Below are positions 19,143 to 62,574 of a stretch of 64,000 nucleotides of DNA, in pieces. Position 1 is the stretch's first letter. Every line of letters begins with the position of its first letter. The position numbers and the translations under genes were made by a program. The notes under the pieces were generated by a model. That model was not told the DNA's origin, did no database searches, and was given only the letters and a program-made list of their open reading frames with translations. Source of the stretch: Minutocellus sp. GHC0000111 (lineage: Eukaryota); NCBI GenBank assembly GCA_977018835.1, contig OZ361258.1, forward strand, positions 4,030,001 through 4,094,000, written 5' to 3'.

Positions 19143-19458
19143 GCTGAGTGGTAGTAAATCGTGCCAAAGTGTTGGCGTGATGGATGTGATGTCTTTCGTC
19201 GTCGGTGTGTGACGCGGCGGTCCGCTCCAATCAAAATCACAACTTCTGCAAAATAAATATCTGCGCAATGGCACAACTGATACAACAAACGAACAATTCT
19301 GCGAGGTTGGTGTAGTCTATTGGAATAAAGTGATTCGTTGCTCTCTTCTGCAGCCTTTGGGTTCTTCAGCCGGTGCTCCGGTGCTCTTTCGGCGTTGTTC
19401 GGTGAAAATCGGGTTGATCCCGAAAAACCACAAACGGCATGTCATCATTTTGAGAACC

Positions 19459-21548: not shown

Positions 21549-21737
21549 ACTTCTTCGTCAGTAGGAAAGAGCATTAGTAGTGTTATCATCTATTCGCGCT
21601 CAAGTGAATTATAAGCGTAAGCACAAGGAAAAAAAAAGACATAAATTATGAGCATGTAAAACGGGGGCGTAGCATTTACCCATGAGTTCCACAACGTATA
21701 CTTCATTCAACCAAAAACCATTGGTTCACATCATTGT

Positions 21738-23771: not shown

Positions 23772-24415
23772 GGCGGTGCAGCTGGTTGACGACTAATGAA
23801 TAGATTGCCAATTAATTGCCAGCAATTTATTCTGTACGAGAGTCAGGCAAGGGAGGTGCGGCTGAACTCAAAACCAATCCTCAAGATGTGCAATGAAATC
23901 CACCGAGGCTACTCTTTCACTCCACAGACAGCAGGAGAGAGAATCTGGGTTCCGAGTAATTTATGTATGGGACCGAACCAAAAATCAGATCGGTTTAGTT
24001 GAGATGTATTGTTTGCTTCCGACGGCTGGATGGAAGGTTCAAAAAGTGAAAGTGGCTGACGTGCTGGATTTACGGGAGACCCGACCGGCTCGAATAAACG
24101 GATTTACATATTATATGGATCGAGCGAGTCCAAAGAATTTCGATTTCTGCAGTGCATCCGATGACCCGGTTGTTGGTGAAGTTGGTCGCCGTTTTTTGAC
24201 ACGAACGCGAGGGCAGAAGATACGCTCTCGGCACAAGATGTGCTGGTTTCACACCCGGCCGCTATTTGACAGAGTTGAACACACTTGACCACCCCCACCT
24301 CCTGAGTTGCCCAGTATCTTCTCTTGCTGGTTCTCTCGAGGGATATCAACACACGGAAACAGCAGAGGTGCGTTCGATCGAACGAACTCACAGCACAAAA
24401 CCCAAAAAACAAACG

Positions 24416-36970: not shown

Positions 36971-38254
36971 TTACGAAAAGAATTGGAAAAAGTCCTCGTA
37001 TGGAGGCAATGGAAGCTTGTATTTGCGAATCTCCTTCACAGAGACTCCATTTGCTTTGTTCATTTCGACATCGACGTCGCTCCACACCGGAACCTGAAAG
37101 AATGAGTCCTTTGCTTTCTGAACACCAACATCGTCTTCTCCACCACTGCCACCTTCTTCTATCATCTCGGACAAGGGTTTTGCCCACTCCTCTTCAGCTA
37201 CACGGTTGAATGGCCTCGCGCTGCCATGTCCCTCTTTATCTTGAATGCAAATATCTTTCCAAAAAGCAACCATGAACGTCACCCGACGCCGTTCTCTGGA
37301 TGCCCCTTTCGATGCGCCGCCATCATCAACATTATCATCATTCGATCGAGCGGCAGCAACGCGCGGACCAGGAACAACTCCATGAAGCAAGTCACCTCGA
37401 AACACGAGTAGCCGATTCCTCTTGTTTGTACAGAGCCATCCCTTCGTGGCCAATGCTCTCCCCGATGACGTTTGTGTGGTGACCAATGTCTCTCCGCCCA
37501 TTCCAACATCAGACGATATATTAATGACGGTGCTGCAGACAGGGTTTCTCACGCCACCTCGTCCTTCATCATCGGAATCAAAGTGAAGCTGATGGCCAGA
37601 GGAGTGCGGTCGACAGTGAGCCCACCACTCACAATATTTGCACTCGTTCACATCTGGAAATACCTCCGATATCTGTCTTTGAATTTTTCTGATGATGATA
37701 TCAAGTGCTGTTGACGGCTGAGCCGAAGAAGCGTCATCGTTGTTGATTGGTACTATGTAGGAAAAGTATGGGCTGGGATCCTTCCCACCACTACCATCGC
37801 TATAGTCATGCCGCTCCCAAAATTTCGAGGTTGGCCCAAAGGTTGCATCCAATCGATGGAGAAGAGAATCGGATAGGATGCCATCCCATGCGGCCGAGTA
37901 TCGCAATGGCGGATTCGAGGGATTAGAGTGCTTACGTCTGAGCGACTCAACTGATAACCGATATGCGAATCCACGCTCTGATAACAATGTAGATGCTTCC
38001 TTTGTCGCATCCTCCTCTCTCTTTTGCAGCAGCAATGTAGCGAGGAAGATGCCCGTGTTGGTCCAGGTTGTCTTCTGGTTGGCATCACCGCCACCGGTCG
38101 TCTCTTGGATATCGTTTGTCGAGAGATCCGCCAGAATTTCTCGCAGCTTTACTTCCACTACCGACAGATCATCCTCACTCAATGCATCTGTACGAAGTGC
38201 ACGTATTTCGGCGAGGCGCCGGGCCAGATCACATGCGCCGGCGGTTGTCGTCAT
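36971..38254 (-). CDS. 2OG-Fe(II) oxygenase-like protein
   Basis: EWWAH...QLHFDSD...NRLLVFRGDLLHGV...RRRVTFMVAFW (HxD...H...R). Confidence 0.8.
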   Translation of the reverse strand: MTTTAGACDLARRLAEIRALRTDALSEDDLSVVEVKLREILADLSTNDIQETTGGGDANQKTTWTNTGIFLATLLLQKREEDATKEASTLLSERGFAYRLSVESLRRKHSNPSNPPLRYSAAWDGILSDSLLHRLDATFGPTSKFWERHDYSDGSGGKDPSPYFSYIVPINNDDASSAQPSTALDIIIRKIQRQISEVFPDVNECKYCEWWAHCRPHSSGHQLHFDSDDEGRGGVRNPVCSTVINISSDVGMGGETLVTTQTSSGRALATKGWLCTNKRNRLLVFRGDLLHGVVPGPRVAAARSNDDNVDDGGASKGASRERRRVTFMVAFWKDICIQDKEGHGSARPFNRVAEEEWAKPLSEMIEEGGSGGEDDVGVQKAKDSFFQVPVWSDVDVEMNKANGVSVKEIRKYKLPLPPYEDFFQFFS

Positions 38255-38357
38255 GGTTGAGTCTGTGGAATGATGCGAATTGATGGTGAGTGGGCCTGTC
38301 CTTCATCCGTCAAGCGAGGAAAAATGACCAAACCGCGGAACGGCGGGTCAAAGCACG

Positions 38358-38931: not shown

Positions 38932-39402
38932 TGCTCGAATCAGCGGCGTGGAAAGCGAATCTGAGGATGAATTCTCAGGAAGTGCCGTTGCTTCAAAAAT
39001 CTCTTCTCTCTTTTTCCCTTCTCTCCTGTGCGCTGTGTGTGCTGTCGCGCGCGCGCGCGCATCTGCAGGTTGCTCTCCTCCCTTGTTTTCACTTACTTGT
39101 TGTGCTGCTTGCTGTGCGGTGTGAACCGCGCGCTCGAGTGAGTCAAACAGGCGAATCTGCTTCAAAAGCAGACGAGAGCTTGATTCGAGTGAGTCAAATC
39201 AGGCGCGTCTGCTTCAAAAAACGCACTTCTTAGCGCTCGACAATCTACAAATGGCGTTTCCTTCTTAGCGATCGAATTTTTTGCGTCACTCAATCACGCA
39301 AAAATAATTCCAAACGTGCGGCAGGCGGGCTCTCAAGACTTGGCCAACGTCACAACCAAGACAGACAGACCAACCCACTCACCCCTCCATCCACCGCTCG
39401 AG

Positions 39403-41187
39403 ATGGACGACAACGACGACGAATCCTCGGTCGACACTACGACACTGGCAGCCCGAGAGCTTGGGGAAAGCTCGAGGAAGCTGCTAGAGGCGGTCAAGGG
39501 TGGCAGGCTCAAGAACATCATCGAGGCCATGAACGAACACACCGAGACGTGGATCAATCAGGTCGATTTGGATCCTGACGTTGCTTCGAGCATACGAGAG
39601 GCGTGCCTAGTATCGTACAATCCCAACTCGCGGAAGCGAAAGAACTCTAGCGGTGGTTCTGCTGGAGGTGGTGGTGGTAATGGCGGTGGTGGTGGGGGTG
39701 GCAATGGCAACGGCAACGGCAACCAACAGCAGCAGCAGCAGCAAGAGGGCGAGCAATCAGGCGACGACGAGGCCAACGACAACGGTGACGCGACCGCCGA
39801 GGCGATTGCAGCGGCTCGATTGGCCACTCTCCAGGAATCAAGAGAGCACTGGCTGGGGCTCCGAGAGGACCGGAAGCTGGGCGAGTACAAGTCGGTCTTT
39901 GCCTTTGTCAAATTTCCCTCGATGATGAAAATGGCGGAGGAACGATTGGAGGATTGCTTCCATGAATACGACTGTGGAGATCCCCATTTTGTAGACGTTG
40001 TCATTGGGCAGATCATTACCGACTTTGTCCAGCAGCGACTGTTTGGGATGCAAATGGGAAGGGTGTACCGTCAGTCTGACGACGTGGCATGGAAACCGAT
40101 CTGCTTTAGAACAATTGGACAATTGGGCAATGCCCTCGATGAGGACAGCAATGGCACCAGCGCTGTCGCCTCTAGCCTCCCCATTGTAGAGGGCCTCAAA
40201 CTGGCTGCCGAGCAAGCCAGAGACTCGGGTATTTTCTCTCTGCCATCCAACCAGTCCGCCGATGCTCTTCTCAAGCAGTGGCTGACAATGGACGAGCCAT
40301 CGAGGAACTACAACCTCGTCATGTTGAACTGCCTTGCGGGATGCTATGCCTTCCGGTTTTTGGAGTTGTCGGATTTGACCGAGGGCGACGATCCCATCCT
40401 TTCCGACGACGTTCTGGATGCCATGGGAGTCGAGGAAGACGCGATGCCCTCCGACGCGAACGAGCTCCTTGTAATGTTCAGGCTTTGTTTCGACGATGGA
40501 GACATTGACCATGAAGACAAGGTGACCATCATGCTGTCCCTCCTTCGGATCATCAAGCTCATGAAGAAGTATCCCGACTCAACGTGGAAGAAGGTGGATG
40601 GGTACAAGAGCGGCAGTGGTGGATCTGTTGTTCATGCTGGCAGCGATGCTCGTGCCGACCTCGCTGATGAGGATGGTGACGATGGGGACGACGACGCGAT
40701 CAAGCGATACTTTACTACCACTGATCGAAAGAACAAGGCCCTGCTGGCCATGTCAGTGCTGGTGTGTTCTGACTTCATCTACGACTGTACTCGCGAGTCG
40801 GTCCTGTATGGCCAAAAGTTCAAGGGAGTCCTCCCTGTGATGCTCCGATGTTCGATTGACTCCTTTTTCAGGAACTCGATGTACCTAATGATGCGCAAGG
40901 TGTACGATGGATCAGCCACCGAGGAGTACATGACCACGGTCCACGAAGGCCTCAACAGCGCAGTAACGAAAGCGAATGCCGGTAGCGGCAGGGGACAGAG
41001 GCGCTCGACGTATGCAGATGACGTTGCAATCCTCACCAGCTTGGGTTGGTCCAAGAGAAAGTTCGATAAGCAATTCGCCCTCTATGGATTCGAGCTGGAG
41101 GAGGCCGGCATCGAGTGCTCCGAGGAGGACAGCGACAGCGACAGCGATGAGGAGGAGGATGGTGATGGTGGCGACAAGGAGAATTAG
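39403..41187 (+). CDS. Intronless hypothetical protein (594 aa), acidic ends, Gly/Asn/Gln tract, NLS-like RKRK
   Basis: Long ORF with coding-like composition; no family recognised. Confidence 0.7.
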   Translation: MDDNDDESSVDTTTLAARELGESSRKLLEAVKGGRLKNIIEAMNEHTETWINQVDLDPDVASSIREACLVSYNPNSRKRKNSSGGSAGGGGGNGGGGGGGNGNGNGNQQQQQQQEGEQSGDDEANDNGDATAEAIAAARLATLQESREHWLGLREDRKLGEYKSVFAFVKFPSMMKMAEERLEDCFHEYDCGDPHFVDVVIGQIITDFVQQRLFGMQMGRVYRQSDDVAWKPICFRTIGQLGNALDEDSNGTSAVASSLPIVEGLKLAAEQARDSGIFSLPSNQSADALLKQWLTMDEPSRNYNLVMLNCLAGCYAFRFLELSDLTEGDDPILSDDVLDAMGVEEDAMPSDANELLVMFRLCFDDGDIDHEDKVTIMLSLLRIIKLMKKYPDSTWKKVDGYKSGSGGSVVHAGSDARADLADEDGDDGDDDAIKRYFTTTDRKNKALLAMSVLVCSDFIYDCTRESVLYGQKFKGVLPVMLRCSIDSFFRNSMYLMMRKVYDGSATEEYMTTVHEGLNSAVTKANAGSGRGQRRSTYADDVAILTSLGWSKRKFDKQFALYGFELEEAGIECSEEDSDSDSDEEEDGDGGDKEN

Positions 41188-42285
41188 ATTATTAGATTGA
41201 GTAGATCTATGTGCAATAATAATTTATGTGCATGTAGCTACGTAGTAGTTAGATCTACTGTGCATGTAGCATCGCGGGGTGCATGGTGCTTGCTGCTTGC
41301 CCGGTTTGTAGATTTTCTTACAGGAAGCTCCCGATGACCCAGGTCTCGTTTTGCTGCTTGAAGCAATCCTACAGACAAAACACACAAAAGCAAAAGCAGC
41401 ACCACAACTTCTGCCACAACCTGACCATTGCCCACACCGCCTGTCGGTACCCAAGAGCATATCGTATCTCCCTCGCATACACACGCATATCATTGTCGTC
41501 GTCGTCGTTCGTCGTCGGTGTTATCGTCGTCGTTGTTGTATCATCCGTGAGTATCTGGCGCATCTTGTGCTCGTTCGTGTTGCCTTCGTCGGCCGGTCCT
41601 GTTTCCTCTCCTTCGTCGGCTGTCCTTTGTATTGCCTTGCATCTCTCATACCCAATCAATGCCTGATACCTTCCTTACTTTCTCTCCTCTCTATTATATC
41701 TGGCACATCTTTGTGCTCTCATCAGTGCTGGTGGCGTCCGTACCGCCCCAACGTTCCATCGTTCGGCGTCGGCCTTCCTTCAACTCATAACCTATTGACC
41801 ATACAATCCCCTCCTTCTCTTTGAGCACATACGCTGCCCACCACCGATACTTGGTCCATACCGCGCATCTGCCGCGCCGGCTGTAGGAACGAGGACCTTG
41901 TCGTATCCGGTCTCGTCGTCGTTGCGTCAGCGTCGGCTGGAGCTGTCTGCCTCAAGAAATACGTCCTTTTTAGTAACTGGTATCCAATACCGACCAACTA
42001 AGCAAGCACATCCCTGGTACATACATCAGCATCACGTCGGCCTGAGCGCTGTACTGTACTGATCGTCGTTCTCATCATCACCTTTGTTGTTCACGAAGGT
42101 TTGGTGCCTTTTGTCAGCCTCGTCTGTGCCATACAACCCGCCGCTAATACAATACTAGTACGGAGGCAAGGTCAGTCCATTATCTTTTCATTTGACTTTA
42201 TCTCAGCTGCAAGCCGATATATCTTATCGTTTCTTGACCATTATCTTCTTTCTATGCATACTAGTACCCTGTTGAGGCAGTCATC

Positions 42286-45200
42286 ATGGGCAAGACTCTC
42301 CCCAAGACCGAGGAGGCGAGGAAGAGGAGGAATTGGATAAGGAGGCAGCGGAGGAAGAGAGCAAGGGATCGCAAGAAAGGATTCCTTTTTCCATTTGAGG
42401 TATGTTGATGCCTGTATGTCATCAAATTGTGCAGAGATGCTACCTACCTAGGTACGTATTACATACAGACCTGTATTGTTGTGTGAAGAGTGTACTCTTA
42501 CGAAGTCCGTTTCGCGAGAAATCGAGCGCAGGGTCGGGACCAAAACAGCGACTTTTTGGGCCCGCAACCGCCTGAATCTTAGATCTACCGGCATTGAATA
42601 CATGTACAATGCAAAGTACATGTACCTAGGTATTGCAGCAGCTAGTATCCAGATCTACAATCCAATCTAGTATTATTAAACACAATATAACTTAAAAGCA
42701 CCGCAGGACTAATTATCCATGGTTGGATCAGCAGGAGGAGGAGCGATAATTTTCCCATCTATCCGAACCATGCCATTTTCAGTCGGCCTGAAATCCTTTC
42801 GCACCCCAACATGAATGCCTTCACCGTTTCCAAGAAAATCATTGTTGCCTTTTGCAACGATTACCTTCTTTGCAATTCTATGAGCCTGGATGTATGCCGA
42901 TGCGATCTTCCAGTTTTCCAGCCCCATCCAAACTTCCTCCGCTGCATCCCAAGTCTGATCCTCTGTCAAAACCTTCAGCCCCTCCCGATCGCGGCACAAC
43001 ATTGTATGCTGCTTTGACATGCAAGGGAAAACAGACAGATCAAGAACATTCATATGGGGCATTTGCGGGGCCTGAGGTTCCCAACGCCATCCCTTGTCCC
43101 GACAGCATCCTTCCACATATTCCACAAATTCAGTCTCGGCATGGGGCCCAGCATTGTCGCCCTGGAAAATAGGGACACAGCCTTCAAACTTTCCGCCAGG
43201 TCCGACCAAAGCCTCAACATCCGGAAATATCTTGTTCTCAAACAAAGCTTTCAGTGGGAACTTGGGATTATCAAGGGTGCCATGGCTGCATCCAGTCACC
43301 GCGCAATCCACAAGGTGTAGATCGTCTTTCTTCCGAACCACCGGGCCGCAATATTTGATTCTACCATCTGCCTGCCGCACCGCCTCCCTTACCATCTGCC
43401 TCGCAATTTTATGCGCCTGAGCCCGAAAAAGTCCAAGCTTGAACGCAATGCCGCCATTCTCAATGCTGTCAATAAAAGCCAAGGCAGTGACAGCTACCAC
43501 CATGCACTTGTTGATGTGATTTCGGTGATATGCCGAGAAGGACCGAGGATCAATACCCAATTCTGCAACTTGCTTGGCATACGATCGAAGAACCAAGCCC
43601 CAAAACCACTTCTCATCGAACATAACAAGGAGAAACTTGCCACCGCCGAGCCCCCAATTGTTTCGGAATTTCCGCGCAAATGCCAAATGTTTCTCCATCT
43701 GATGTGTAGTAAGGAGAGGGATGATCCTTTCGGCATAGTACCGGAACCCTTCCCGCGACATTATCCACCGCCGTATTGCCGAGTAGGAACACCAAAAGTT
43801 GACATCCACCTCCAGCTCCCGCCAAGATTCCCGAGGATTTCGTATCAGAGCATCAACAATAACATCTCGAATGCATGGCTGCATAGCCAGATGAGATCTC
43901 CTCTTCATCTCCCACATCGCCTTCTCAGATGCAGGTAGAGCACCACACGCCTTCATCCATCCCGAAAATCGTGCACCATGCTCTGCGCTGGACAGCACCG
44001 AATAGTCCACCTTTGCCTGCTCCCTGCACTTGGCAATTGCAAAGAGACATGGTGCAGCACACCGCCGGGTCGCCGTTGCAAGATCGTCGATGACAGAACG
44101 GAAGGCGGCCGAATCAGATGAATCATCGGCACTCGTTGGGAAGCAGTATACCGGTCCAAGTATGCCGATCGCGTCATCGAAATGCTCAGCTTCGACTTCC
44201 GCCCGAGACACAATGGATTGAACACATGCTCACCGCTGTCTTCTTGGCCATCATCATTGACCAGGAGAAAACTCTCAAGATTGACGGGCCCGAGGATTTT
44301 GAGAAGCACATGCTCCTCAATGTCGTCAGTCGACTCGTCTGCCGGGCGATAAGGGCCGAGAACATGCCCCTCGACATGGATGATGTCGTGGCAATAACTG
44401 AATCGGTGTACGACAAGGCCGCGGAGATGTTCCACTCCTCAGTTACCTTCATCTACAAGTTCAACGGCGTGAAGCGGGAGCTAAAGAAGCTCAAGCTCAT
44501 CCCGGATTGGCTGTGGTGCGAGATCCGGGACGAATGCATCATACTGCCGATCCGAGGCGAGCATCATGCCATCGTTCAAGATGAAGACGAGATGGAGGCC
44601 GAACCGTCGCGTCGCACGAACGCGTCCATTTGATTAGAGCCGCTGAAATCTAAAGTCTTATCCGAATTATTGTTTCACATGAAGATAAATCAAAATTAGA
44701 GTAAAAATAGCCATTTTCTTAAATATTTCAGCATGACTATTCTTCGAGGCGCTTTTCAATCCCCTCGAAAGCAGTCAAAAACCGGGCGCTCGATTTCTCG
44801 CGAATCTGACCTCGTATGTATCTGATATGTTGTTCCTTTTTCCGTTTAGTCTCAAACGCAGCCAGTGAGTGATGTCAGTCTGGCTATCCGCCCGTCTGAC
44901 TTTCCAACGCATAACTTTGCTGCTTGGCAACCGTCAATTTCGGGACAGCAGCATGATCTACTGCAGTCTCGTGCTGCATCGGGCGGCCAGCCTCGTGCTG
45001 TGCATGTATCGGGCGGCCAGCCTCGTGCTGTGCATGTATCGGGCGGTATCGATGGTCCCACCTTCCCACTGGCTCCGTCGTTCCAGCCTCGTGCTGTACA
45101 TGTATCGGGCGGCATCGATGGGCATGCCGGTACCTTCCCACTGGCTCCGTCGTTCCGGAGTCTGAGTGTCAGTTCTGATGATTCCCTATGGGGAGATTTT

Positions 45201-48200
45201 GAACCAGTTCCGTTGGGCCAGTCTTTTGCTGCATTGGCCCTGCATGCTGCCGTGGAGGGACGTCATCGACCGGATACTGGCTCTCCATCTCTCCGGAGAC
45301 AGAGTGTCTGTTCGGATGATTCCTCGATAGGTCTATGGGGAGATTTTGAACGTGATCCATCGCCACCTGTGCCACCTGATGCAAGAGTTGCCAGCCCAAT
45401 TGATCTTTTTGGTGTTGCGCCTGGTGGCAGTGGCATCGATCCTCGGACGGAATCTGCTGCAATTCATCGTCTCATGAATCGATCGGATGCCGGCCTTCCA
45501 TCACGTGGCGTTATGGCCGGCCAAGTCAACCCGAATCAGCATCGTCATAACGTTGTTTCTGATCTATCTGGTCATCAGAATCCCACCGTTGAAGTCCTCA
45601 ATGCAGGTGAGGGTGCTTTCCGCCGAGCGACTGAAAGTAATACAAGGGAGGCCATGTGTGTCATCCACAATAGGCAAGCCTTTGAGCTGGCGGATCACAA
45701 ACTTTTGCAACTTCAACAGACTGGGCGGTAAGTAGTGCCGGTATTGTCTGTATTCGAATTGAGATTGCTCTATTCACCAAGGGCGTACATGCATTCTCAT
45801 ACTTCTCTATTTATTCATTCTATATTTATCTGCACACACACAGAATCCGTCAAGATGATCTTCAGATCACCAAGCCACACAGCACGATCTACCATGACGT
45901 TCCTATCAAGACTTTCTCTTCATTGAAATCCGAGCTTATGTCCAAGCGCAACGTCAGGCTCGGCACTATGGGTGCTTTTGACACGCTGAATGCTCTTGTA
46001 AATGGATGCCCTCATTCTGCTGCTGAGATTCGTCGAGAGATTGATACCCACGATATTGTCATCCTGACTCTATATGTTGGTAGCCATGAGGGTCAAGGAG
46101 ATGGTCACGTTGTGCACGCGGTCTCGTATTCGGATCCCATCGACAAGACCATTCGATTTTTATTCATCGATACCTTGAACGCGATGCGTGACAGCCATCG
46201 AGCCTATTTTGAAGGAAAGTTCCGCTCCGCCGGTATCATCAAGCCCGAGGAGGTGATGATCAATGTGTGCTTCGATCAAGTCGAGCTCGAGTGCGCGGCT
46301 CTATCCTTTTACGTTGCAGTCGCCCTTAGTCGTTGGCTCGCGGAGGATTCATCTCATCGTTCGGCGAGTACTCTTCCACCTTTTCATGGGCGGTATGATC
46401 CTTCTGCTGTGCGAGCCTGGTTGTTTCGATCAGTTGTCGAGGTGACGGTAGAAGACGTCCATGGCCATCAGGCGGTACTCCCTACTCCCTTTGACTTTGA
46501 TGGTGTCATTCAATATCCGACAAATCTTGGTGGTGGCCCTTCCCACTCCGACTCTGATGATGAATCTACATGGACCACTGTTTCCCACGGTCGTCGCTCA
46601 ACATCACCCACGCATGGTACCAGCGCGCCAACTCCCACTCGTAACCGTCTGAGTCGGAGGAGCAAGACGATTGCCGGGAAACGACTAGCCCACACCGATT
46701 GCACCGTCGACGACGATGGCAGCGATGATGAGTTCCTTGATGAGGATGTTGAGGTAAGCACTGAAGTCCTGATAGCTTGGAGTTGCCATGATCTTATTTA
46801 CCGAATTTACTTCTCACCCTTTTCGTGCCTAATGCTGTCCTCACTCTACATGTTCATGCAGCATCGATCCTCTTCGTCTCGGGGCAACGTCGGCCGCCGC
46901 ACCACTCATCAGTCTTCTCGGCCGTCCACGTCTACTTCGTCCATTACATCCAACTCTACCGCCTCGTTCCGCTCCCCCTCGTCTCGCTCATCCCGCCGCT
47001 CGACTCGCTCGTCTCTATTTTATGATGACTACCAGCCAGACAGTTGGCAGAACATAGCCTCGTTCATGTTGCTCCAGTACCTTACCATTTTCGTGTCCTA
47101 CAACTACGTGGAGAACAGCACCACCCTCCCCCCGAAATATGATTCCCTCAAGTCAAAGGATGAGTACATTGAGAAATCATTTCGGGAAGCGATATTCCTT
47201 CAACGCAGTCCTCTTCAGTTGTATGCTGCCAAGGACCTCGGTACCAAGTACCATGCTTCGACCAGTGACGACGGTCGTCAGCGGTTTTTGCAACGACACC
47301 AAACCGTCGAATGCACCACTCTGCCCAACACAAGGGATCACCGTCTCCCTGGATTGGTGGCGCTGAACGAAATGAAGGTCCGCTGCGTGGACGGTGATAA
47401 CGAATTTGTACTCGTTCGCCTCAACAATCACTACGACAAGTTGTTGCCAATCATCGAGGCCGAGCCTGGCGTCCTCACCGATTCCAAGGTAATCAACGTC
47501 GACAAGGAACGAAACTCCCTTATTGTTCACATCGGCCCCACCGACGTCGACGCTGATCAGTGGATTCTAACTCCAAAAGGCAAGCGACCAGGTCATTTGA
47601 AGACCACCAAGTACATTGGCGAGACGTATCCCAAATTTGCGAGATGGATCGGGGAACTTCTGGCTATCATAACCCATGATTTCCAGAATGCGGTACTTGC
47701 GGCATTTCCTGACCACGAACCAATGTTTGTAATGACTCCAGTTCGTCAGTTCTACTGCAATGAATTCGCCTCTCTCATCGGATGCGACGACATTCGTCAT
47801 AAGATACTCGTTCCAGCCTGTTCGTTTGGGTTTGAGATGAGAAATCTGGTAAGTGCTTGTATTGGGATCAATGCCCATCCCCACGTTTACAAGTAATTTG
47901 CTTGTCCAGTTACTAATTCTGCCTATGTCTATCCTTCCTATTCCTCAGCTCGAGCATCTCGACACGAAGAATGGCGTCGGTGAGGGCAACAACTGGGTAA
48001 CCCTTGCCATGAAGATGTTTTCTCTGAGTTCCATTAGCCCCAAGGCTCGCTATTGTCTGGATCAGGCCGGTGTCGAAGGTACCGATATTATGTGCTACGT
48101 CATCGGATATACCCGCCGCATCGTCGACAATTGGGACAAGCGCACCAAGGCCAAAGTTCCGTCGTTGATCGAGAAGCCCGTCGAGCATCTCAGCCGGGTC

Positions 48201-49929
48201 CGTCGTCAACACCCCGGTTTCAATCTCAAGACCGTCATCGAGGACACCAACAAGCTCTCGGAAATCTTCACAGACAATGTTGTGGACGGATCGAGGACGG
48301 ACATTCGAGTCAATCGCTCAAAGGCAAAGACCGACCGATGCAGTTGCCGCAGCTGCCGCAGTGCTAGGTCCGGCGTCGTCCACGAGCCATGTGATTACCG
48401 CCATGGCCGGATTGCGGTTATCAATGGATGTAAGTTATTTTTTCGACATGCCGACAAGTAGATTTTTTTGCTGATGTGAATATTTTGTATTTTAACACAG
48501 TCTCATTTTCTAGTTGCATTCTCATTCTCATCTCTACCACATAGCTGAGTCGAGAGAAATCGGCTTTCTTGGGTCTCTCATTGATCTCATCCTCTTGGTG
48601 TCTTGTCGGTTCAAGCTCAGCATGTTCCAACTGCTGACCCTCGCCGTCGGAATCGTCGTTAGCAGCAATGGCGTGCTCAAGATCCTCCACATCCTCGAGG
48701 ATTGGGCCAACGATCGTTGCGTTTTGGGCTCCTTTTCGGAGTTTGTGTCCTCGTCACCATTTGCCAACCTGTTTCTGCTACTTCAGAAGGAGATTGATGG
48801 ACACCACTCTACTAAGGAGTGCATCAATCGCAAGAAGACGGCGACCCATCATGGTCGGTATCAGTTCCAGGCTGGTACCAACATGGCTTTTGACAGCATC
48901 TGCGATTGCCGATACGACGATAACGAATGCCTTGTCGAGGAGATGGATCCTCAGCTTCCTACCGAAGCGCCGCCGATGGGGGAGGTCCAACGTCGAGTGA
49001 TCAAGAAGAAGGGCCAGGAGCCTCGCAAGGACGGCTCGTTCAATATTTTGAGCTGGTTCGTTGCCATTATGCTGGTGCTCAAGGCTGCCGCCGCCATCCC
49101 TGCCGACCGAATTCAGTCCCAGTACAGTGGCCTCGTCGACAAGCTGAGCAAGTTGGATGGTTTTGGATCCTTCTCGGCCAACCTGCTAGTTCAACTATGC
49201 GCTCGCATTGGTCTTACCAGCGTCGACGTTGGTACCTGCGGTGGAGTGTGGTCCATGTCGCTTGGTACGTACAAATTCCTCAAGAGGTCTCTTGGCGATG
49301 ACGTCCCTCTGTCCCTCGAGAAGGCCCAGGAGATGTTCGACGAGCTACTTCGGTACCACCAGATGACCCTCAAGATGCATCATTTCACCGCCGAAGATCT
49401 CGATTCTACTCTTTGCGAGGCCAATCGTCTTCTTTGGGGCATTCCCAAGAAGGACGTGTTCCTGATATCTTCCACGGGTGAGCTGCAGAACGTCATTACC
49501 ATCCGCAAGAAGAAGATCAACTCCAAGAAGGGATACCGACCCGACAATACGACCAATGTGCTGACGATACACGCTGGCGGACATTACAACTCGCTGAGCT
49601 ACCGATACCAAGACCTATCCGAGGGAATTCGATTCCATTGCAACGTCGGTGAGCTCGATGATTGGACCCAGCGCGGTGGATACGTCCATGCCAATGCCTT
49701 GGATGCCATGCCATCCTGGGTGAAGCGCATGAGGCCCGTCGATCCAATCACCGGCGAGCTTCAGCACTTTCACTCCAACGTATTCGTGGCCCCGCGTATC
49801 GAACTGCCCAACGATCCGGTTATCATCGAGATTGATGACGACGAGAGCGAAGATAACAAGGGCGGCGAGGGAGACACTGGCTACGATGGTGGAAGTATCG
49901 GAAGTTGGTCGGATGTGGACTTTGAGTAA
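42286..49929 (+). CDS. ~1584-aa multidomain nuclear protein: Ulp1-like protease + TET/JBP-like segment + HhH/aGPT-Pplase-like helical domain
   Basis: Exons 42286-42399, 44850-45727, 45844-46753, 46862-47848, 47949-48429 and 48545-49929; all GT-AG, phases compatible, total 4755 nt. Confidence 0.7.
42709..44211 (-). CDS. Mariner transposase (true start codon unclear)
   Basis: FDEKWFW...QGDNAGPH...QAPQMPHMNVLDLSVF. Confidence 0.9.
   Translation of the reverse strand: MSRAEVEAEHFDDAIGILGPVYCFPTSADDSSDSAAFRSVIDDLATATRRCAAPCLFAIAKCREQAKVDYSVLSSAEHGARFSGWMKACGALPASEKAMWEMKRRSHLAMQPCIRDVIVDALIRNPRESWRELEVDVNFWCSYSAIRRWIMSREGFRYYAERIIPLLTTHQMEKHLAFARKFRNNWGLGGGKFLLVMFDEKWFWGLVLRSYAKQVAELGIDPRSFSAYHRNHINKCMVVAVTALAFIDSIENGGIAFKLGLFRAQAHKIARQMVREAVRQADGRIKYCGPVVRKKDDLHLVDCAVTGCSHGTLDNPKFPLKALFENKIFPDVEALVGPGGKFEGCVPIFQGDNAGPHAETEFVEYVEGCCRDKGWRWEPQAPQMPHMNVLDLSVFPCMSKQHTMLCRDREGLKVLTEDQTWDAAEEVWMGLENWKIASAYIQAHRIAKKVIVAKGNNDFLGNGEGIHVGVRKDFRPTENGMVRIDGKIIAPPPADPTMDN
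44226..44633 (+). CDS. Small ORF inside the mariner, opposite to the transposase
   Basis: Globular-looking sequence MLTAVFLAIIIDQEK...IPDWLWCEIRDEC. Confidence 0.35.
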   Translation: MLTAVFLAIIIDQEKTLKIDGPEDFEKHMLLNVVSRLVCRAIRAENMPLDMDDVVAITESVYDKAAEMFHSSVTFIYKFNGVKRELKKLKLIPDWLWCEIRDECIILPIRGEHHAIVQDEDEMEAEPSRRTNASI

Positions 49930-50249
49930 TGAGGGAGGCTTGTTTGGCTGTGACTTTTGAGTTGGATGTGAATCAATTTACCCGAATAGTAGTAATAATA
50001 ATTTGTATTTTATCGTCTTCATGCGATTTGTGATGAAATGAATCCCGTGCTATGTATTGTTACTGTTCTATCTATCTCGACCGAAGTTCGCAGGATCTAA
50101 AAATGTTTGCCTCCCAGGCAAAAACACTATCGCGATCAATTCGGGAGATTTACTGTTGGAGACCGTCGGATTTACAAATATTGCCATTCAAGGCAAGCGC
50201 TATCTCGATGGATTCGGGAGAGGGAAGGAAGACTGTCAGTCCAACAAAT

Positions 50250-51739
50250 CTACTCCAACGACTCAATGAACTCTTTGACTTCTTTCTTGCTCCGGAACAC
50301 TTGGTTGTTGTAGTAGTATATGTAGTACTTGTCACCGGCGTTCTTGCAATCACTCTTCCTTGTACCACGAACACGGGTGTCCATGGTCCAACCTGGACCG
50401 AATTCGGGGCAAGGCTGGTCGCCGACTTTGACTCCGGGACGGGGAATGCGCTCGTAGTCGTCACTCTCGTCGCTCTCCTCTCCATCATCGGACTCCTCTT
50501 CACCAGACTTATCCTCGTCCTCGCCGTCCTCGTCATTGGGCTGGAACTCATCATCGTCACCAGACTCATCCTCGTCCTCGCCGTCCTCGTCATTGGGCTG
50601 GAACTCATCATCGTCATCGGACTCAACCTCGTCCTCGCCGTCCTCGTCATTGGGCTGGAGCTCCTCATCGTCGTCGGACAGCTTCTCGTACTGGCCGTCG
50701 TCGGACTCGTGGTCATGCTCTTGGAGGGAGGAACGAGGCTTCTTGAGGCTCTGGGTCCTGGACCTGTTGAGGCTCCGACCGACCGTGTCAATGGTATCCT
50801 CGTCGGACGACGACTCCTTGCTGTGCTTCTTGTCGTAACGTTCGAGTTCGGACTCATCGGACGAGTCGAGCAGGTTGTTGTAGCCAGGAGACGTGAAGAG
50901 CAAGGAGTCATTGAGGAACGAGGTGTTCTTGGTGAAACTCTTGAGGAGCGAGGGATCCTTGAGGAACGAGGAGGACGCGGTGGCATCGAGGGACTTGTCA
51001 ACGTCATCGTCGTCACCATCCGAGTCGGTGTCCTCGATTGCATTGCGACGACGGAGAAGACGTCGGGGCTTGCTGACACTCTGGTGAGGCAAGAGAATGG
51101 AAAGTACAAGGCCACGATGGGACGATGGCTTAGCAGAAGCACGCAGTGGGACACACAGAAGGATACGATTTCGTCATTGGATACGCCAACAAACAAAAAG
51201 TAGAAATCAAAAAGATGTGGTCTTACCATCTCCTTGAGCTGGGCCAGGAGACCGGCGACCTCGGTCTCAAGACCGACGACCTTGGTCTTGTGTTCATCGA
51301 CTTCGTCGTCTAGCTCCCTGATGGTGTAGTTTTGGTCCTCGACCTTGGCCTCCAAACCCATCATCGTCTCTTCGAGGGCAACAATCTTTTCATCCCTGGC
51401 CTTGATCACCTCGTCCTTGGCCGTAATCTCCTCGCGCATGGTCTTGATCTCACCATCCCTGGCCTCGACCAATTCATCACTGCTGTCGTTGGCTTTCTGC
51501 AACTCGTCGATGAGATCACCATCTTGATTCTGCTCATTGAGCAGTTCGGTAACTGAATTGTTGAGACGACCCTGGAGCTGATTCGACTCTCCGACCATGT
51601 CCAAAGCACTCCTCAACGAAACACGCTGTCTCTTCCGGTCAACCAAAAGGCCGGTGACTGCCTTCACAACGCCATCCGTGCCGAGCATTGCAATGGCCAA
51701 GGCTTCTTCCCTCTCCTCGCGATGGTGTTCACTATCCAT
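50250..51739 (-). CDS. Coiled-coil + acidic repeat + C-terminal methyl-CpG-binding (MBD/TAM) domain protein; exons 51739-51227 and 51080-50250, 447 aa
   Basis: PEFGPGWTMDTRVRG...AGDKYYIYYYNNQVFRSKKEVKEFI matches the MBD pattern GW..e.r.R...D.YY.....FRSk.e+. Confidence 0.8.
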
Positions 51740-51818
51740 CTTGGTGTAGTATCGATGTATCAAGATCTGTGGTTGACTTCGAAATGAAAAAAAGTGTGGT
51801 CGCTTTTCGCATGTTGCT

Positions 51819-53444
51819 GTGACGGCCGAAGACAAGCGATCAAAGTTAGTCAATGACCTCATCAATGAATGGACCACCAAAGTCGTTCCGATTCTTGATG
51901 GTGCCTACCACGACCTCATTTCCACGGCTCCGCACTCCGAGATATCGGGTCAGCGCGAATATCGGTACCAGGTTGCCGACCCAACCGACCAATTCCAGAA
52001 TGACCTCATTGAGGTATACAACTCATCTATTCTATCCAAAGGAGAGGAGAAAGCCTGGTTGATTACGAGCAGAGTAGACTATGGAGTTTTGGCCAAGTAC
52101 ATCAGCGAAACGCCAGAGTTAAAGGAGATGAAGACTTTTCTCCAGCGTTGTTTCAGGTTCTGGCGAGAACACAGTGAGTCGACTCATGCCAATGTTCTGC
52201 GAACAAGTTTTCTTGTCGTTGCTAAGAATGCATTTATCTAACAAAATGAATTTTTTACTTTGTTCTAACCCAGCCAACCAAACGCGGAGACGCTCGACAG
52301 AGTGACGGCAGACTCGACCGAAGCCGCCGACCACCACCGAAAGGTTAGCAAGCACAGCGCCGAGCAAGGCTGTGACGCAAGGGAGTACGCATTCACCAAG
52401 AAGAAGTCGTCAAGAGAATACACTGCTGCAGTGTACGCCATGCGCCTAGATGGCGGCGAGAACGACGACCAACGCGCAGTCCGAAGCAAGATCGGAAAGA
52501 TCAACTCGAAGGCCAACAGCTTACGAGAATATTTCTTACCCGGCGACTCATACAACAAGAGACGCAAGCCATTCAGACTAGATCCTAGCAACTCAAACGA
52601 GACTGTTTCACCCGACAATGTCGTCGGCGAGATTCTGCTCGACATTGGGGAGATTGCAATCGGAACTCTCTTTGAAAAGGTCAAGTTTCCCCACACGAGC
52701 AACTACGCCATTCAGGCGATCGAGTCTCTTGCTACGGCGTCATTTTTTCCAAACCTCACAATTTGCCCATCCATTGACCAGATAGGCGACGGAGGAATAG
52801 CGTTGCTCAACAACGCCAATTGGAAGAAGAACCTCGAAGCGTTCCTAGACCTTCGACGAATCAACGGCGGAAGTTTTCAGTACTTTCCTGGGGGCGGCAC
52901 GGCAAAAACTCCAGACGAAAGAAAGAGACAGTCGCTTACGAATTGGTACAACAACGAGCTAATGCAGTACAAGAAGGGAGAAATGCCAATTGACCGAGTC
53001 CGCGTCTTGGATGGAATGAGGTTCTTCGAGAACAACAATCGGGGCCAGGACTACCTCAACAAGTTAGAAGCAAAATGGGTGCAAAGATACGACGATCTGA
53101 GCAACCTGATAGTCCAGCTAAAAGAGCAAACCGAAGAAGACGAGGGTGGCGAACACGAGGAACTTGACGACAACGATGAGGACAGTGAGATTGAGTGGGC
53201 ATCGGAATGGCCACTGGAAGAATTTTGGGTTTACCTACATTCGGATGACTATGGCCCGGACTCCAGAGAGTACAAACTTTCTAAGTGGTACAACGACCAA
53301 GTAGCACAGCTTGGGAGACACAAGCAACACACTACGAGTTCTCGGTTTGTCAACGGCGCTCTGCCGGAAATGTACCAGCAGAGGGCAGAGAATCTTCGAG
53401 AGCTAGGCGGCCCGCACTCTGACAAGCTTGGAAACTACAGTTAG
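51819..53444 (+). CDS. Helicase-associated (HA) domain-like protein; 5' structure unresolved
   Basis: LTNWYNNELMQYKKGEMPIDRVRVLDGMRF and KWVQRYDDL...LSKWYNDQ...QRAENLRELG. Confidence 0.55.
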
Positions 53445-54065: not shown

Positions 54066-55269
54066 ATCCAGAGGAAGACGGTACATTGGTGGAGCTCACC
54101 CACAGCGGTCCACCTTCCTTGGCTTCTCCATCGTCGTCACCATCGTCGGCGCCGGCATCGGTTTCCTTCCATCGGCAATACCGGAGACACTGTTCCTTGA
54201 CATCACCATCGCCTCTGCCAATGCGAGAGTAAAATTCAAGAGTAGCCGCATCGGATGTGCCAGTACCTGCCGCTCCGGTCATATCATTGAGGTCTGTCTG
54301 TTCCAGGTTCTCGTCAAGTTCTTCTTCGTCATCCTTCCCGTCATCGCCGCCCTCATCATCACCCATTTCTTCCACAATTTTCGCTTTCTTTTTCCCTTCG
54401 TCACTTGTGCTGAACATGGCCACCTTATCCATCTCTTGTCTCAATCGCTCTTCTTCGTCTGCGGTTGTCTTCTTCGATGTTGGCTCATCCTCCACAACAA
54501 GCTCCGATTCCACATAAACAGATGGCAATAATTTCGATATGGCGTCTTCTTTATCATCGTCCTTGGCATACTTATTGTATTCCTATTGATGCTCCTTGCC
54601 ACAGAACCACAAGTCTTGCTTGGGACAACGTCCGCCCGCTTTGCAACCACAAACAGCACAAAGGTTGACCCCGTGAACCTCTGACTCATTATGGGTCCAG
54701 TCATCAAAGTCATCTTCTCTATCTTTTGTCGACCGAGGATAAAATTCGTTATCTTGTGGCAACTGGCTGCGCAATACCAGCACGGAATCTGGTGTTGGGT
54801 TGGTCGAGCATTCCGCCGAGGGACAGGCAAACACATACAGCGTCCGATGGAATGCGGCTGGATTGGGCGGGCTGCTCTCCTCATCGGCCGGACAATACGT
54901 TTGGCACAAGAAGCGCATGATCGTTGATTCTTTTGTTTTTGAAGAATCGTTGCCCAAACCATTGCCATCGTCATTTTCCTGGGCTTCGTTGCGTTTGGCA
55001 CATGCTCTGCATCGGAGAGGACCAACTGGAACATCCCGTGGGTTGAGCAAGCTGGGCTTTCCACCTATCTTGCCTCCATCCCAATCCGACCAGATGGGTG
55101 AATTGTGAGCAATTGCCTCGAGATCACCCGGTGATTCAATAGGAACAGAGAATCCGAGATGTACAGCTATCGATGACGCCGAGGCGGCGGAGGCATCGTC
55201 GTTGTCCACCCACCTGGGTGGGTGGACGACAGATGAAAAATGAGTGAAGCTGAAAGGTCTGTCCGTCAT
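54066..55269 (-). pseudogene. PDCD2: PDCD2/TSR4-like protein with in-frame TAG (54583-54585) and missing C-terminus
   Basis: GKIGGKPS, FLCQTYCP, FHRTLYVFAC, VLRSQLPQDN, MYND-like CAVCG...FCGKEHQ, QCLRYCR, PLWVS. Confidence 0.8.
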
Positions 55270-55681
55270 CCATTTTCGCTAGGAATGACACCCGGATACG
55301 CGAACATCCAGGATCAACAGTGATCCTACTAGGACCCGGAATTGTGAAAAACAGGAGGAAATCCTGGGAAATTCGATTTTTTGTGAAATGGAGCTCTGAC
55401 CTCATGCGATGCACCAATGAATAGATCTCACAAAGTTACACCTGGGTTCGAAAGTCCGAAGTTTCAATTCCGAATATTAGTTGAGATATTCGCACATCAT
55501 GGGTGCTTCGCCCTTGCTTCCACGCGTTGAGTTTTTCTCCCAAAATCAGGCCTTTTTTCCTCCGTTTTTCGCGCCGCTGGGTCCTAGTATGCATTCAAAG
55601 CAAGCCTCACAACACAACAAAAGAAGCAAAACGCCAATACCAGCACCCCTGTGCGCACACCACGAAGAGAAATATTGCAAT

Positions 55682-56152
55682 ATGAAATACGAAAAGGTTG
55701 TCCAGAAGGAAAACGAAGCCAGCATGGTAATTGTAAATGCAGAGCGAGTGGGCGATGATGCCCCAGTATCTTTTTCCGCGGATGCAAATAAAAATCCTTA
55801 CGAGGACGATGAGACTATCGTCAGCGAGGACAATGGGAAGCAAGTTGCCCATGGTGCCGCATTCTTCTGGGGCCTCTTTGGTTGCATCCTTGGCGGCTTC
55901 CCTCTAGCACTGCTCGGTGCTTGGGGCGGTGCTCACACGGCCACTCACAATGATGGTCCTGTTGGAGAATTATCCCGAAGTCTAGGAGAAGTTGCCATCG
56001 CCGCAAGCAATAAGGCGAAGGAGAAACAAATCAAGGAAAAGACCGGTAAGGTAGCCAAGGCAACGGTGAGACAGCTGAAGGAGTCATTCAAAGGCCGCAA
56101 AAATACCTCGGCGACCGCATCCTCCCAGAATCCGAATGCACAAGTCCTTTAG
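55682..56152 (+). CDS. Small protein with Gly-zipper hydrophobic segment, function unknown
   Basis: GAAFFWGLFGCILGGFPLALLGAWGG...GELSRSLGEVA. Confidence 0.6.
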   Translation: MKYEKVVQKENEASMVIVNAERVGDDAPVSFSADANKNPYEDDETIVSEDNGKQVAHGAAFFWGLFGCILGGFPLALLGAWGGAHTATHNDGPVGELSRSLGEVAIAASNKAKEKQIKEKTGKVAKATVRQLKESFKGRKNTSATASSQNPNAQVL

Positions 56153-56242
56153 CACTTTTATTTGTTTGTTTGTTCAGAAAGCGAAAAATGCTTGAAAATC
56201 CGAAAATAGAATGATTGTATATTAGAGATAAAAGAGTTGCAT

Positions 56243-56982
56243 CTACCACATGCTTTCCAGCCGCTCTTTCAAGTACTTGGCTACGCCATCGTTGGCGGCC
56301 AGCTTGTCGGCAATAGCGTTCAGGGCAGTGCATTTCTCGGCCGCCTTGGCAGTGTCCTCCAAATCAGCGGCCATGCAATCACGAAGCAGAGCCCAAATGA
56401 CGACATCGGCATATGAAGTGCTTGATCCATATGCGTATCCCTCGCTTCCGGTCTCCTTGATCACTGCTTCAATCTTTCCCAACATCTCAGGCATATCACT
56501 CTCGAACCATTCCTTACGAAGCTCGGCCTTTTCCTCATCTGTCTTTCCCTTAGCAAAGCGGCTGAATCCCTTGCGCATGGCAGCATCCTTGACATCACGG
56601 CAGTGCTCGGCGATACAGTCAATCATGGCCTCGTCCTCGGGCGTTTCTCCCACCAGGCCGAAACGTCGCGAGAGGTATCGCTCAATGGCCTTGCTTTGGC
56701 CGATGGTAGCACCGGATGGCGTGATGAGTACGGGCGCTCGGTTCAGATTCATTTTGAGCTCACCACTTTCCTTGGCCTCATTAAAGTGGGGGAGCTGAAC
56801 GTCTTTTGGTCAATGGCAAAGCGATCGTCATCATACACCTCACCCCCCAGAGCGAAGAGGATGCGTGAAGTCTCGGTAGCTCCCTTGATGTCGAAGTATC
56901 GAAGCCGATAGTTCGAACCGCTGGTCGCCGATGCCGATGCTACTGATAGCGATGCGACGAGGAGAAGGTTGAGGCGCATCAT
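56243..56982 (-). CDS. Glutathione S-transferase (Tyr-type, sigma-like) with signal peptide; apparent 1-nt frameshift near 56790
   Basis: YRLRYFDIKGATETSR, NRAPVL, IGQSKAIERYL, SYADV; one added C in the C5 run restores ...SPHFNEAKESGELKMNL. Confidence 0.85.
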
Positions 56983-57027
56983 GGTAGCTTGACTTCGGAT
57001 GATGACTGAGCCGGATGACTCGACTCA

Positions 57028-58671
57028 CCTACGTAGGCCTAGTAAGTACCCTATAGGCAACACTGGGTGTTGCCAGGCTCACCGTGGCGTGACGCACGCC
57101 CTGGCTGTTGCTCACCCTGTCCTTGTCGCGAGCCTAGCTTCTGCTCTAAAATAGTTGAAAATATTTTCATGTCTGTGTGTTTTTGCAATGTTGGCAGGCT
57201 CGCATGGCGAAAGCTGGCAACAACCAAAACTTTTAGCATCCTTGGGACTTGTTTCATGCACATCAGGAAACAGCTGGACAGAGAGCTAAGGAGCACTGAT
57301 TGTTGCGAAGTGTAAGCAAGCGAGCTGGGCCAATCAGTTGAGTCCGTTCAAAACCGCAAGATACCGGCTTCAATCGGCTTGGTTTGTGTCCCGTCTTCTG
57401 TATCCCGTCTTTTCACGAACACGAGAACGGCCAGAGAAAGAGAGAGAGAGATAAAGCACCAATGGCTCGTTCTCCCGCGACTACAAGCGGCCGAGGAGGC
57501 CGAGGAGGCCGTCGTACTACCAGTAATAACGCAGGACGCGGCAGCGGTGCCAGTACTGGATCGCCATCTCGTCGCCCAGTCGATGCTCGTGTTCATGGTC
57601 CACCGGCACCGGCTGCACCACCTCGTCGAAATGGCCCTCAGAACAAAAATCGAAGCTTTCGAGACGTCATTCGCAATCAGCTTGCGCACGTAACGCAGCA
57701 TATTCCTTTTCAGCACCACATCCCACACCACCCACCAGGAGGTGGTGCTCTCGTTCCTGCTGCAGCTCCCGCCAACATTCCGTTTCGAGGAGAGGTTCGA
57801 ACCGGCGGTCCAACTCAAGAGTCGGTATTCAACACAATCCGCGAAGCACGCGAAACTCACGTAGAAAGCCGATCCAACCGAACGACCGATATATATTCAC
57901 AGTTTATTCCCCGCTGGGAGAAATGGTGCGCAGCTGTCGATGGAGATGTGCTTGATGGCGTGCTGATTGAAGGGAAAGGAGATCAACCATACAGCCTTGC
58001 CGTCACTCAGTTCAAGACCGTGAAATTTATGGCATCATATGGTCTAATATTATGGACCGGGAAAGAAGAGGGGCAATCTTCCAACATGGCGCTCACAATC
58101 TACAAGAGGAGCAGGCATTCGTAAATATGATCAAGAAATGTGCAGAAGGAAGAAGCTGTACGATCAGATCGATGCTGGCGTCACAGCTGATGTTTTTTAC
58201 GACGTTGTGAGGCGAGAGAACAACGAGTTGTTTTCAGACCCAAAATACCAGCGCGATGGCACGATTCTTAGATGGCTAATTCAGTACTATACTAGAAAAG
58301 GCAGCCGATACGAGGAAAATAGAAGACGTGCCATTGAAAGAAACAAGAAGAGAAAGGAGAATCGCATGATCCATCAAAACCATCAAAATGAGGACAACAA
58401 CGAGTTGGACGATGAATCTGATGAGCCACCATTGGAGATCATGGAGGATGTATAACTACACTTAGTCTGCTTTTACACATGTATAGGCATTCCTGCTCAT
58501 TTGTCTACGCCGTCATGGCATAGATCTATCGGTACATGTAGCAAAGATAAAAGAGAGAAGCAAAGAAGCAAAAAAGGCTTCAATTTTTTTTCGTTTTGGC
58601 GCGCGGTCCCTTCCCCCTGTTTTCCGGGCCATTGGTAGTTCCTTTTCTGGCTATTTCCTACGTAGGCCTAG
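57028..58671 (+). mobile_element. Putative internally deleted Crypton-like (tyrosine-recombinase) element bounded by 15-bp direct repeats
   Basis: CCTACGTAGGCCTAG at 57028-57042 and 58657-58671; ORF remnants 57462-58455 with RTTDIYSQFIPRWEKWC...VTQFKTVKF and GCR1_C-like TWRS...MCRRKKLYDQI. Confidence 0.5.
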
Positions 58672-58899
58672 CTAGTCACTCATCCTGTCATCATGAGAGC
58701 TGAAAAGCAAAGCGATGATCAAAATCGTCTGTCCTCGTCCGTCGACCAGGTCAGCAAATCAATCCGCCCGCCGTTGTTGCTGCCATATTGTTACGAGGTC
58801 ACCTTGTAGGCAATTTGCTTTACTAGCTCTAGTAGGGCTGCCCTTATTACTGGAAGAACCAAGGGCCGACGCGGAAGAACTGGCAGCATCGACGCAACG

Positions 58900-60959: not shown

Positions 60960-61240
60960 CGATCTTGGAAGAACAAAGTTGCGTCTTGCGTCTGGTTGCG
61001 GCTTCTCGGCTTCTCATTGTCCAGAAATTCCAAAGAGAGGCGGATTCGGGGTGATAGGAGCGACCTGTGTATGCAAGCAGGATGAGCTTAATTTTTGCGC
61101 CATCGCCATGCATTAAGAGGGCGCTGTCCATAATTTTCCCCGTTTTTAATCCCCCTTATTCTTATTTCTTATGACGAGCGAAGCATGACAAAAACTCGAC
61201 CCCACCATGAGAATCGCCGCTCTGCCCCCTCTTCATTACG

Positions 61241-62470: not shown

Positions 62471-62574
62471 TCATTACCTCAACACATGTAGACAACAAGA
62501 ATGTGCGTAGCACGTGAGTAACAGCACACAATAAATCCATTTTTATTTACAGTGATAAAATATTTTACACGTGT

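Follow-up and report, generated by a model that had tools for sequence, protein, structure and literature searches.

A six-exon diatom gene with an HMUDK_hel/ADDT-like helical domain and a Tc1/mariner insertion in its first intron

Gene structure and the element within intron 1

The window analysed here, a 64,000-nucleotide (nt) stretch of the diatom Minutocellus sp. GHC0000111 (contig OZ361258.1, positions 4,030,001 to 4,094,000), contains on its plus strand a long gene (42286-49929) that a preliminary description, made from the sequence alone, had presented as a fusion of Ulp1-like, TET/JBP-like and helix-hairpin-helix (HhH) domains. Its six exons join in phase into 4755 nt, encoding 1584 amino acids (aa) plus a stop, and its five introns measure 2450, 116, 108, 100 and 115 nt, all five with GT..AG ends. 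The six GT-AG exons and approximately 1584 aa first proposed are thereby reproduced, the quoted motifs were all found in place, and a long metagenomic homologue (L001) and a second organism (organism B) support the structure beyond chance. Intron 3 is stop-free and in frame and, from its sequence, could be retained.

Exon 1 (42265-42399) comprises the end of the leader, the ATG at 42286 and a coding part (42286-42399) of 38 Arg/Lys-rich aa, likely a nuclear localisation signal by prediction, whereas exon 2 (44850-45727) is of low complexity, with short repeats and an in-frame indel in organism B, and is likely disordered. In exon 3 (45844-46753) a globular stretch (~45965-46480) precedes an acidic linker, and in exon 4 (46862-47848) a Ser-rich linker precedes the first half of a conserved core, which begins at ~46976 in the alignment to L001. 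Exon 5 (47949-48429) contains an HxDxKN motif, YTRR, H1051 and a Cys cluster, conserved in the homologues P0003 and P0029. Exon 6 (48545-49929) contains, from profiles and Atlas matches, a helical HMUDK_hel/ADDT-like domain (~48680-49450), followed by a beta-rich C-terminal domain (~49450-49810) and an acidic tail.

Transcripts were examined in five of nine RNA datasets, among 23 runs listed. RNA contigs from two of these, X7 and X11, revealed two non-coding leader exons, A (41415-41546) and B (41726-42170), with a joint (41546>41726) that removes 179 nt with GT..AG ends; a further RNA joint removes a second leader intron of 94 nt (42171-42264), also GT..AG. The RNA-supported leader of 598 nt is free of ATG before 42286, and the spliced RNA has its first ATG there. 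Contigs of the five datasets showed splicing at none of the five coding junctions. Contigs were absent over 45008-51000 in X7 and X11 and over 44850-52517 in X8, X12 and X18, with X8 and X12 covering neighbours at 54077-56960; we do not count absence in contigs as evidence.

The 2450-nt gap after exon 1 was rejected as a plain intron, being instead a 134-nt intron plus an insertion: the exons of the preliminary description stand, and the Tc1/mariner DNA transposon inside the long first intron (42499-44816, TA at both ends) had been overlooked. This ~2.3 kb element is bounded by 36-nt terminal inverted repeats (42499-42534 and 44781-44816) that are 86% identical, and its excision in silico leaves the 134-nt intron with GT..AG ends. 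Read depth in dataset X1 was ~10,000-24,000 over the element versus 64 on the gene, a value that is not a copy number yet shows the element to be plainly repeated. On the minus strand, a transposase frame (42709-44229), D,D38D by spacing count, matches PF01498 HTH_Tnp_Tc3_2 (E 2.2e-6; 28.3 bits, below the cut-off of 31.5). Inverted repeats, a TA target, a transposase with helix-turn-helix and DDD features and many copies are all as found in Tc1/mariner. A second frame on the plus strand (44094-44633), taken from the list of open reading frames (ORFs), had no Pfam match; related sequences exist in other contexts (loose ends at 44498 in X1), and a subfamily of the element lacks this frame (joint 44164>44616, depth ~3100 in X1). 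With the element removed, the intron has 134 nt and resembles the other four in length; exon 1 is therefore part of the gene, and the insertion came later.

The X7 and X11 contigs, which come from two studies, are spliced twice upstream, yet run unspliced through the donor at 42400 by 126 and 50 nt, suggesting that the insertion spoils splicing of intron 1. Such read-through RNA meets a stop after 40 codons, giving a 40-aa product. No empty-site joint across the element was listed in X1 or X5, and thus no empty allele was seen. We lean slightly towards this copy of the gene being silenced by the insertion. Two points weigh on the other side: the argument draws on contigs, which drop rare forms, and exons 2-6 still form an undamaged reading frame. 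If the copy of a relative is uninterrupted, the insertion would provide a natural loss-of-function background.

Homologues, the conserved core and the HxDxKN module

Comparison with homologues separated a conserved core from a variable N-terminus. Organism B (run X14) covers exons 2-6 with ~5-8 differences per 100 (identity approximately 93-95%); its intron 4 is replaced, its linkers carry in-frame indels of 48 nt and a net 57 nt (among the indels listed), its downstream neighbours are also present and three mobile-looking stretches are missing. L001 matches aa 673-1546 at 36% identity (E 1.5e-169; 31% over exon 4) and is interrupted by introns (98 and 102 nt) exactly where introns 4 and 5 of the gene lie, while its first 407 aa lack a match to the N-terminus encoded in the window (best E 1.8). 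Since the same core and introns accompany an unmatched N-terminus in L001, the conserved unit, as judged from the alignment, is exons 4-6 (aa 673-1546) and the N-terminus is swappable. At 541-1760, in place of the Ulp1-like part, L001 has a CxxC..CxxC finger and a further stretch, which we liken to a zinc finger and to Tudor, respectively.

The Ulp1-like part itself is defined by H422, D440, Q476 and C481 of exon 3, in the residue order of Ulp1 and clan CE. A single-sequence search with exon 3 gave no match at E<=10 in Pfam and PDB, and the part is absent from L001, the one long homologue. The residue order of the original Ulp1 assignment was therefore right, without a family match to accompany it, and we give a Ulp1-like domain in exon 3 about an even chance on its sequence.

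Homologues are few. In a search of 1.84 billion proteins, seven matched at E<=0.001, of which two are 93-99% identical to the window; two of 4748 search candidates were real, a cluster of homologues (P0001) has 13 members, and of two loci returned by a locus search only L001 was true. Word searches for longer homologues gave none in 6560 for exon 6 and one real in 7994 for the exon 4 core; none of 344 stretches of viral contigs matched, nor did any phage record, and exons 2-6 matched no Pfam or PHROG family significantly. In the 13-member L001/P0001 cluster an Asp/Cys pair of exon 6 is lost while the frames are still open. The PDB matches were all discarded as spurious: 6-phosphogluconate dehydrogenase (also with locus L002), TarM (a Lys-rich stretch) and a further one caused by a repeat.

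Within the core, exon 5 encodes EHLDTKNGxGxGNN, with H966 (47955), D968 and N971, followed by YTRR (48108-48119), H1051 (48210) and a CxCxxC..C cluster (48339-48392). Lack of conservation in homologues would have spoken against the motifs, but three lineages, at 33-37% identity, have EHxDxKNGxGxGNN and Y.xR without any change. This invariance indicates that the HxDxKN module is probably a functional and likely a metal-binding site.

Identification of the module as a TET/JBP dioxygenase fared less well: HxDxxN and the terminal Y.xR are conserved in three lineages, while the triad is incomplete and profile support is lacking. In TET/JBP enzymes, the Arg of an RxS motif in the last strand binds 2-oxoglutarate (2OG), and the consensus of that strand in phage thymine (T)-dioxygenases is YR.SvVyYA. 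The three lineages lack an Arg six residues before the Tyr, having Met, Gln or Pro there, and, as the preliminary description had cautioned, all three lack a distal His between HxD and YxR. TET/JBP enzymes are defined by a 2-His-1-carboxylate triad (PMC12730594). The spacing from HxD to YxR is ~50 residues versus ~70 in the phage enzymes, whose central strands are replaced here by one short helix. The best candidate for a relocated iron ligand is H1051, which lies after the YxR strand, is kept in the window and P0029 and is lost only in the lineage that also lacks the Cys of exon 6; H765, H780, H794, H857 and H906 are common to the window and L001. In profile tests, for which the references were phage and bacterial T-dioxygenases only, with eukaryotic TETs not included, the score against 17 sequences was reached by 46 of 60 shuffles and those against full, N-half and post-hoc cut templates (100 sequences) by 33, 28 and 32 of 40, respectively. 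Adding the new homologues gave 11.5-12.2, at or below the shuffle mean, and an Atlas comparison by features of residues 10-115 of P0003, the HxD part, gave no usable match. These results suggest that the module is not a canonical TET/JBP oxygenase; a remote double-stranded beta-helix relic is possible.

The same evidence bears on whether the protein could be an active two-step writer, as first envisaged, in which a cut-down TET/JBP-like domain would oxidise T or 5-methylcytosine (5mC) and the HhH domain would transfer a group, the third iron ligand being non-canonical (H1051, or H906 upstream). We regard this as quite unlikely. The invariant EHxDxKNGxGxGNN and Y.xR, the retention of H1051, the five His shared with L001 and a resemblance, by eye, of exon 4 to two parts of phage T-dioxygenases, RTFG..P and G..YP, all fit such an enzyme, as does the adjacency of phage T-dioxygenases to kinases and amino-acid:DNA transferases (PMC13229309); the lack of the distal His and Arg, the short motif spacing and profile scores at or below the shuffle mean do not, and no kinase was found in the protein or among the scanned neighbours. 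Oxidation and further modification by one polypeptide would need a 5-hydroxymethyluracil (5hmU) kinase step, which the protein lacks. Because the phage transferases require 5-phosphomethyl-U made by a kinase, a two-step writer is possible rather than established.

The helical domain of exon 6

The helical domain of exon 6 carries FGSF (49162), D1410 (49402), C1414 (49414) and GIPK. When compared by features in Atlas, exon 6 matched PF18723 HMUDK_hel / PF18724 ADDT best (0.94; 202 of 256 features), with all ten named matches in one clan. Profile alignment by hhalign of exon 6 and its homologues against 76 phage HMUDK_hel proteins scored 28.6 (E 0.0036) over 97 columns that span G.F, E/D..LCE and G.PK, a score that no shuffle reached in sets of 60 and 56. 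The alignment to 67 ADDT proteins scored 29.6 (E 0.0028; 41 columns), which 0 of 50 and 1 of 56 shuffles reached. For comparison, the phage HMUDK_hel and ADDT clades scored 33.2 with each other, and exons 2-5 and a reversed alignment scored 10.8-19.5. Pfam ADDT matched P0003 weakly (E 0.16; 12.1 of 26.2 bits). Taken together, these comparisons argue that exon 6 probably descends from the HMUDK_hel/ADDT (aGPT-Pplase) superfamily.

Several results weigh against this descent. Atlas rates its match as weak (recognition 1969, below 2300), and a third of shuffles reach ten of ten; the hhalign probabilities were 3-11%, with pairwise E values from 0.003 to 0.018. When P0026 and P0028 were included, the scores dropped to 24.1 and 25.1, versus shuffle maxima of 23.8 and 22.7 (n=30), a six-sequence profile gave E 0.26, hmmsearch bit scores were negative and the window's own exons matched no curated family in Pfam or PHROGs. 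The AlphaFold2 model of exon 6 is helical with a predicted local distance difference test value of 38 (two models, 38-39, too low to use), and Foldseek with this low-confidence model found nothing at E<=0.001. The earlier aGPT-Pplase-like assignment thus gains modest, convergent support from Atlas and hhalign, which weakens as homologues are added and is accompanied by no curated match.

These negative searches also raise the question of whether the likeness is due to chance, the gene encoding a protein confined to diatoms that has a different fold and short motifs with no more than a resemblance to TET, Ulp1 and HhH sites. The lack of a significant Pfam, PHROG, PDB or Foldseek match and the scarcity of homologues are what this explanation would predict, but the three motifs of exon 6 occur in HMUDK_hel order and spacing, and language-model features and profile alignment, which are independent, indicate the same clan. 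We consider chance likeness very unlikely.

The residues of the presumptive active site are partly conserved. In PUGT, a phage member of the superfamily, E243 and T244 are metal ligands, C247 is the proposed nucleophile and the FGPW helix binds DNA (PMC11472151), and mutants of the Cys and of the Glu are inactive, both residues being essential (PMC8989533). The corresponding motif in the window is D-S-T-L-C; C1414 is kept in the window, P0002 and P0028, as is D..LCE, and is lost in the P0001 lineage. The caveat that the usual Glu is Asp was borne out by Asp1410. Speaking against the explanation proposed below, the residue four before the Cys is Asp in three of four lineages, whereas 66 of 67 ADDT and at least 62 of 76 HMUDK_hel proteins have Glu there; the P0001 lineage lacks both Asp and Cys; and the cited literature does not show activity of clade 1 (HMUDK_hel). 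Because D..LCE also occurs in P0002 and P0028, the replacement of Glu by Asp is, by sequence comparison, a family trait. Together with the fixed HxDxKN module, this family-wide change suggests changed chemistry and not decay of a single copy.

In an alternative view the protein is not a transferase: its HhH domain would read modified bases, or erase them in the manner of a glycosylase or lyase, and the HxD module would be a structural or DNA-binding relic. The change from Glu to Asp, the loss of Asp and Cys in the 13-member P0001 cluster with frames still open and the absence of a kinase partner among the scanned ORFs are consistent with such a role, and the nearest folds of PUGT are glycosidases and DNA lyases (PMC11472151). 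Retention of the Cys in three of four lineages argues otherwise, as does the lack of a glycosylase family by Pfam or Atlas, and we consider a reader or eraser unlikely.

Genomic context, proposed role and comparison with known systems

The gene has a depth of 64 in X1, the same as its flanks, and is syntenic in organism B; both observations favour a resident host gene over evident transposon cargo. TET/JBP and Ulp1 domains are known cargo of KDZ/Zisupton-type transposons, but no KDZ-, Zisupton- or Plavaka-type transposase occurred among the ORFs scanned (41 and 15), and recent transposon cargo at this site was rejected given single depth, synteny and the lack of a flanking transposase. Since genes can travel in giant algal elements that have no transposase one would recognise (PMC12477816), an old capture by a mobile element is possible.

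Neighbouring genes in the window include Sel1 + MYND and HA-domain genes, a gene content that suggests a diatom. Four kb upstream, a 443-aa frame on the minus strand (36971-38302) has a full 2OG-Fe(II) oxygenase-like set (HxD, later His, RxT), no Pfam family and a weak PHROG match (E 0.0046), and its product is probably an ordinary hydroxylase. Directly upstream lies a 664-aa plus-strand frame (39193-41187) without a Pfam family, the 3' end of which has a second diverged copy or allele in X1 (variant 41117, loose end 41159). Just downstream, a minus-strand acidic coiled-coil gene contains three to four 57-nt tandem copies (50494-50703). Organism B has no cover over 51879-53156, where an HA-domain frame lies (52269-53444), or over 56983-58709, with an unnamed 260-aa frame (57342-58124), and lacks a 263-nt element with 35-nt inverted ends (55327-55589; joint 55318>55594), by its sequence a small non-autonomous transposon. 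A repeated element at 61113-64000, with a sharp left end at ~61112, is well covered in three RNA runs and organism B; it has frames at 61211-62470 (plus) and 62575-63534 (minus, zinc knuckle), and one additional base is present at 63477 in its other copies.

We propose, with evenly balanced confidence, that this is a spliced diatom host gene for a phage-derived HhH protein that acts on DNA, the copy here being silenced by the Tc1/mariner element. In this proposal, exon 1 would direct nuclear import, and chromatin targeting would fall to the variable N-terminus, which is Ulp1-like here and combines a zinc finger with a Tudor-like stretch in L001. The HhH domain of exon 6 would flip out a pyrimidine for attack by Cys1414 as C6 nucleophile, with Asp1410 taking the place of the metal-binding/acid Glu by analogy to phage amino-acid:DNA transferases. 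Exons 4-5 would contribute the HxDxKN module, which would bind metal and DNA without being a canonical TET/JBP oxygenase, and an oxidised, phosphorylated substrate (5hmU/5-phosphomethyl-deoxyuridine, or a 5mC equivalent) would need to be supplied by other genes or by unusual chemistry. Weighing against such a role, no kinase domain was found in the protein or among the scanned neighbours (41 and 15 ORFs).

Thymine hypermodification by amino-acid:DNA transferases is shown in phages only, in the cited literature, and the presence of this domain, Cys included, in a conserved algal gene with introns would imply a putative DNA-modifying or modification-reading activity in the diatom nucleus. Should the domains be no more than readers or relics, the significance would be moderate. 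A bolder extension, which we think very unlikely, is a diatom family of single-chain writers. In these, a cut-down TET-like iron site, formed by His-Asp and a relocated His, would activate thymine or 5mC for a phage-type Cys transferase to add a group, and the resulting nuclear mark would be a hypermodified base not described so far. Members of the family would swap the N-terminus that targets chromatin, and this strain would be a natural transposon knock-out comparable with a gene-holding relative. The literature searched, mostly represented by listings, yielded no description of a diatom fusion of this kind. Eukaryotic aGPT-Pplase domains were reportedly described by Iyer et al. in 2013, and their occurrence in eukaryotes may already be in print.

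Compared with known systems, the protein shares with Ulp1/SENP (C48, clan CE) the order of His, Asp, Gln and Cys, and differs in lacking a Pfam/PDB match at E<=10 and in the absence of this part from L001. With TET/JBP (PF12851; phage T-dioxygenases and fungal transposon-borne TETs) it shares HxDxxN, a strand and the final Y.xR, but lacks the distal His and the 2OG Arg in their usual place, the central strands, profile support and an adjacent transposase. Relative to ADDT, or aGPT-Pplase clade 2 (PF18724; PaMx11 gp46 PUGT, 8Z2M; M6 gp51), the R94-H95 loop and Trp146/Lys150 are unmatched, E243/T244 are D/S, only 41 columns align and no 5hmU kinase lies alongside among the ORFs scanned; in common are FG.F for the FGPW helix and a Cys at the place of C247 (PMC11472151). 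The closest likeness, and the top Atlas family for exon 6, is HMUDK_hel, or aGPT-Pplase clade 1 (PF18723; PaMx11 gp50). In contrast to that family, the domain here is fused in a 1584-aa, intron-bearing eukaryotic protein, falls below all curated cut-offs and has Asp for Glu and NL..Q for the helix YE..D, yet the two share the G.F helix, followed by a motif of small residues, acid-x-x-L-C-E and G.PK, with order and spacing preserved.

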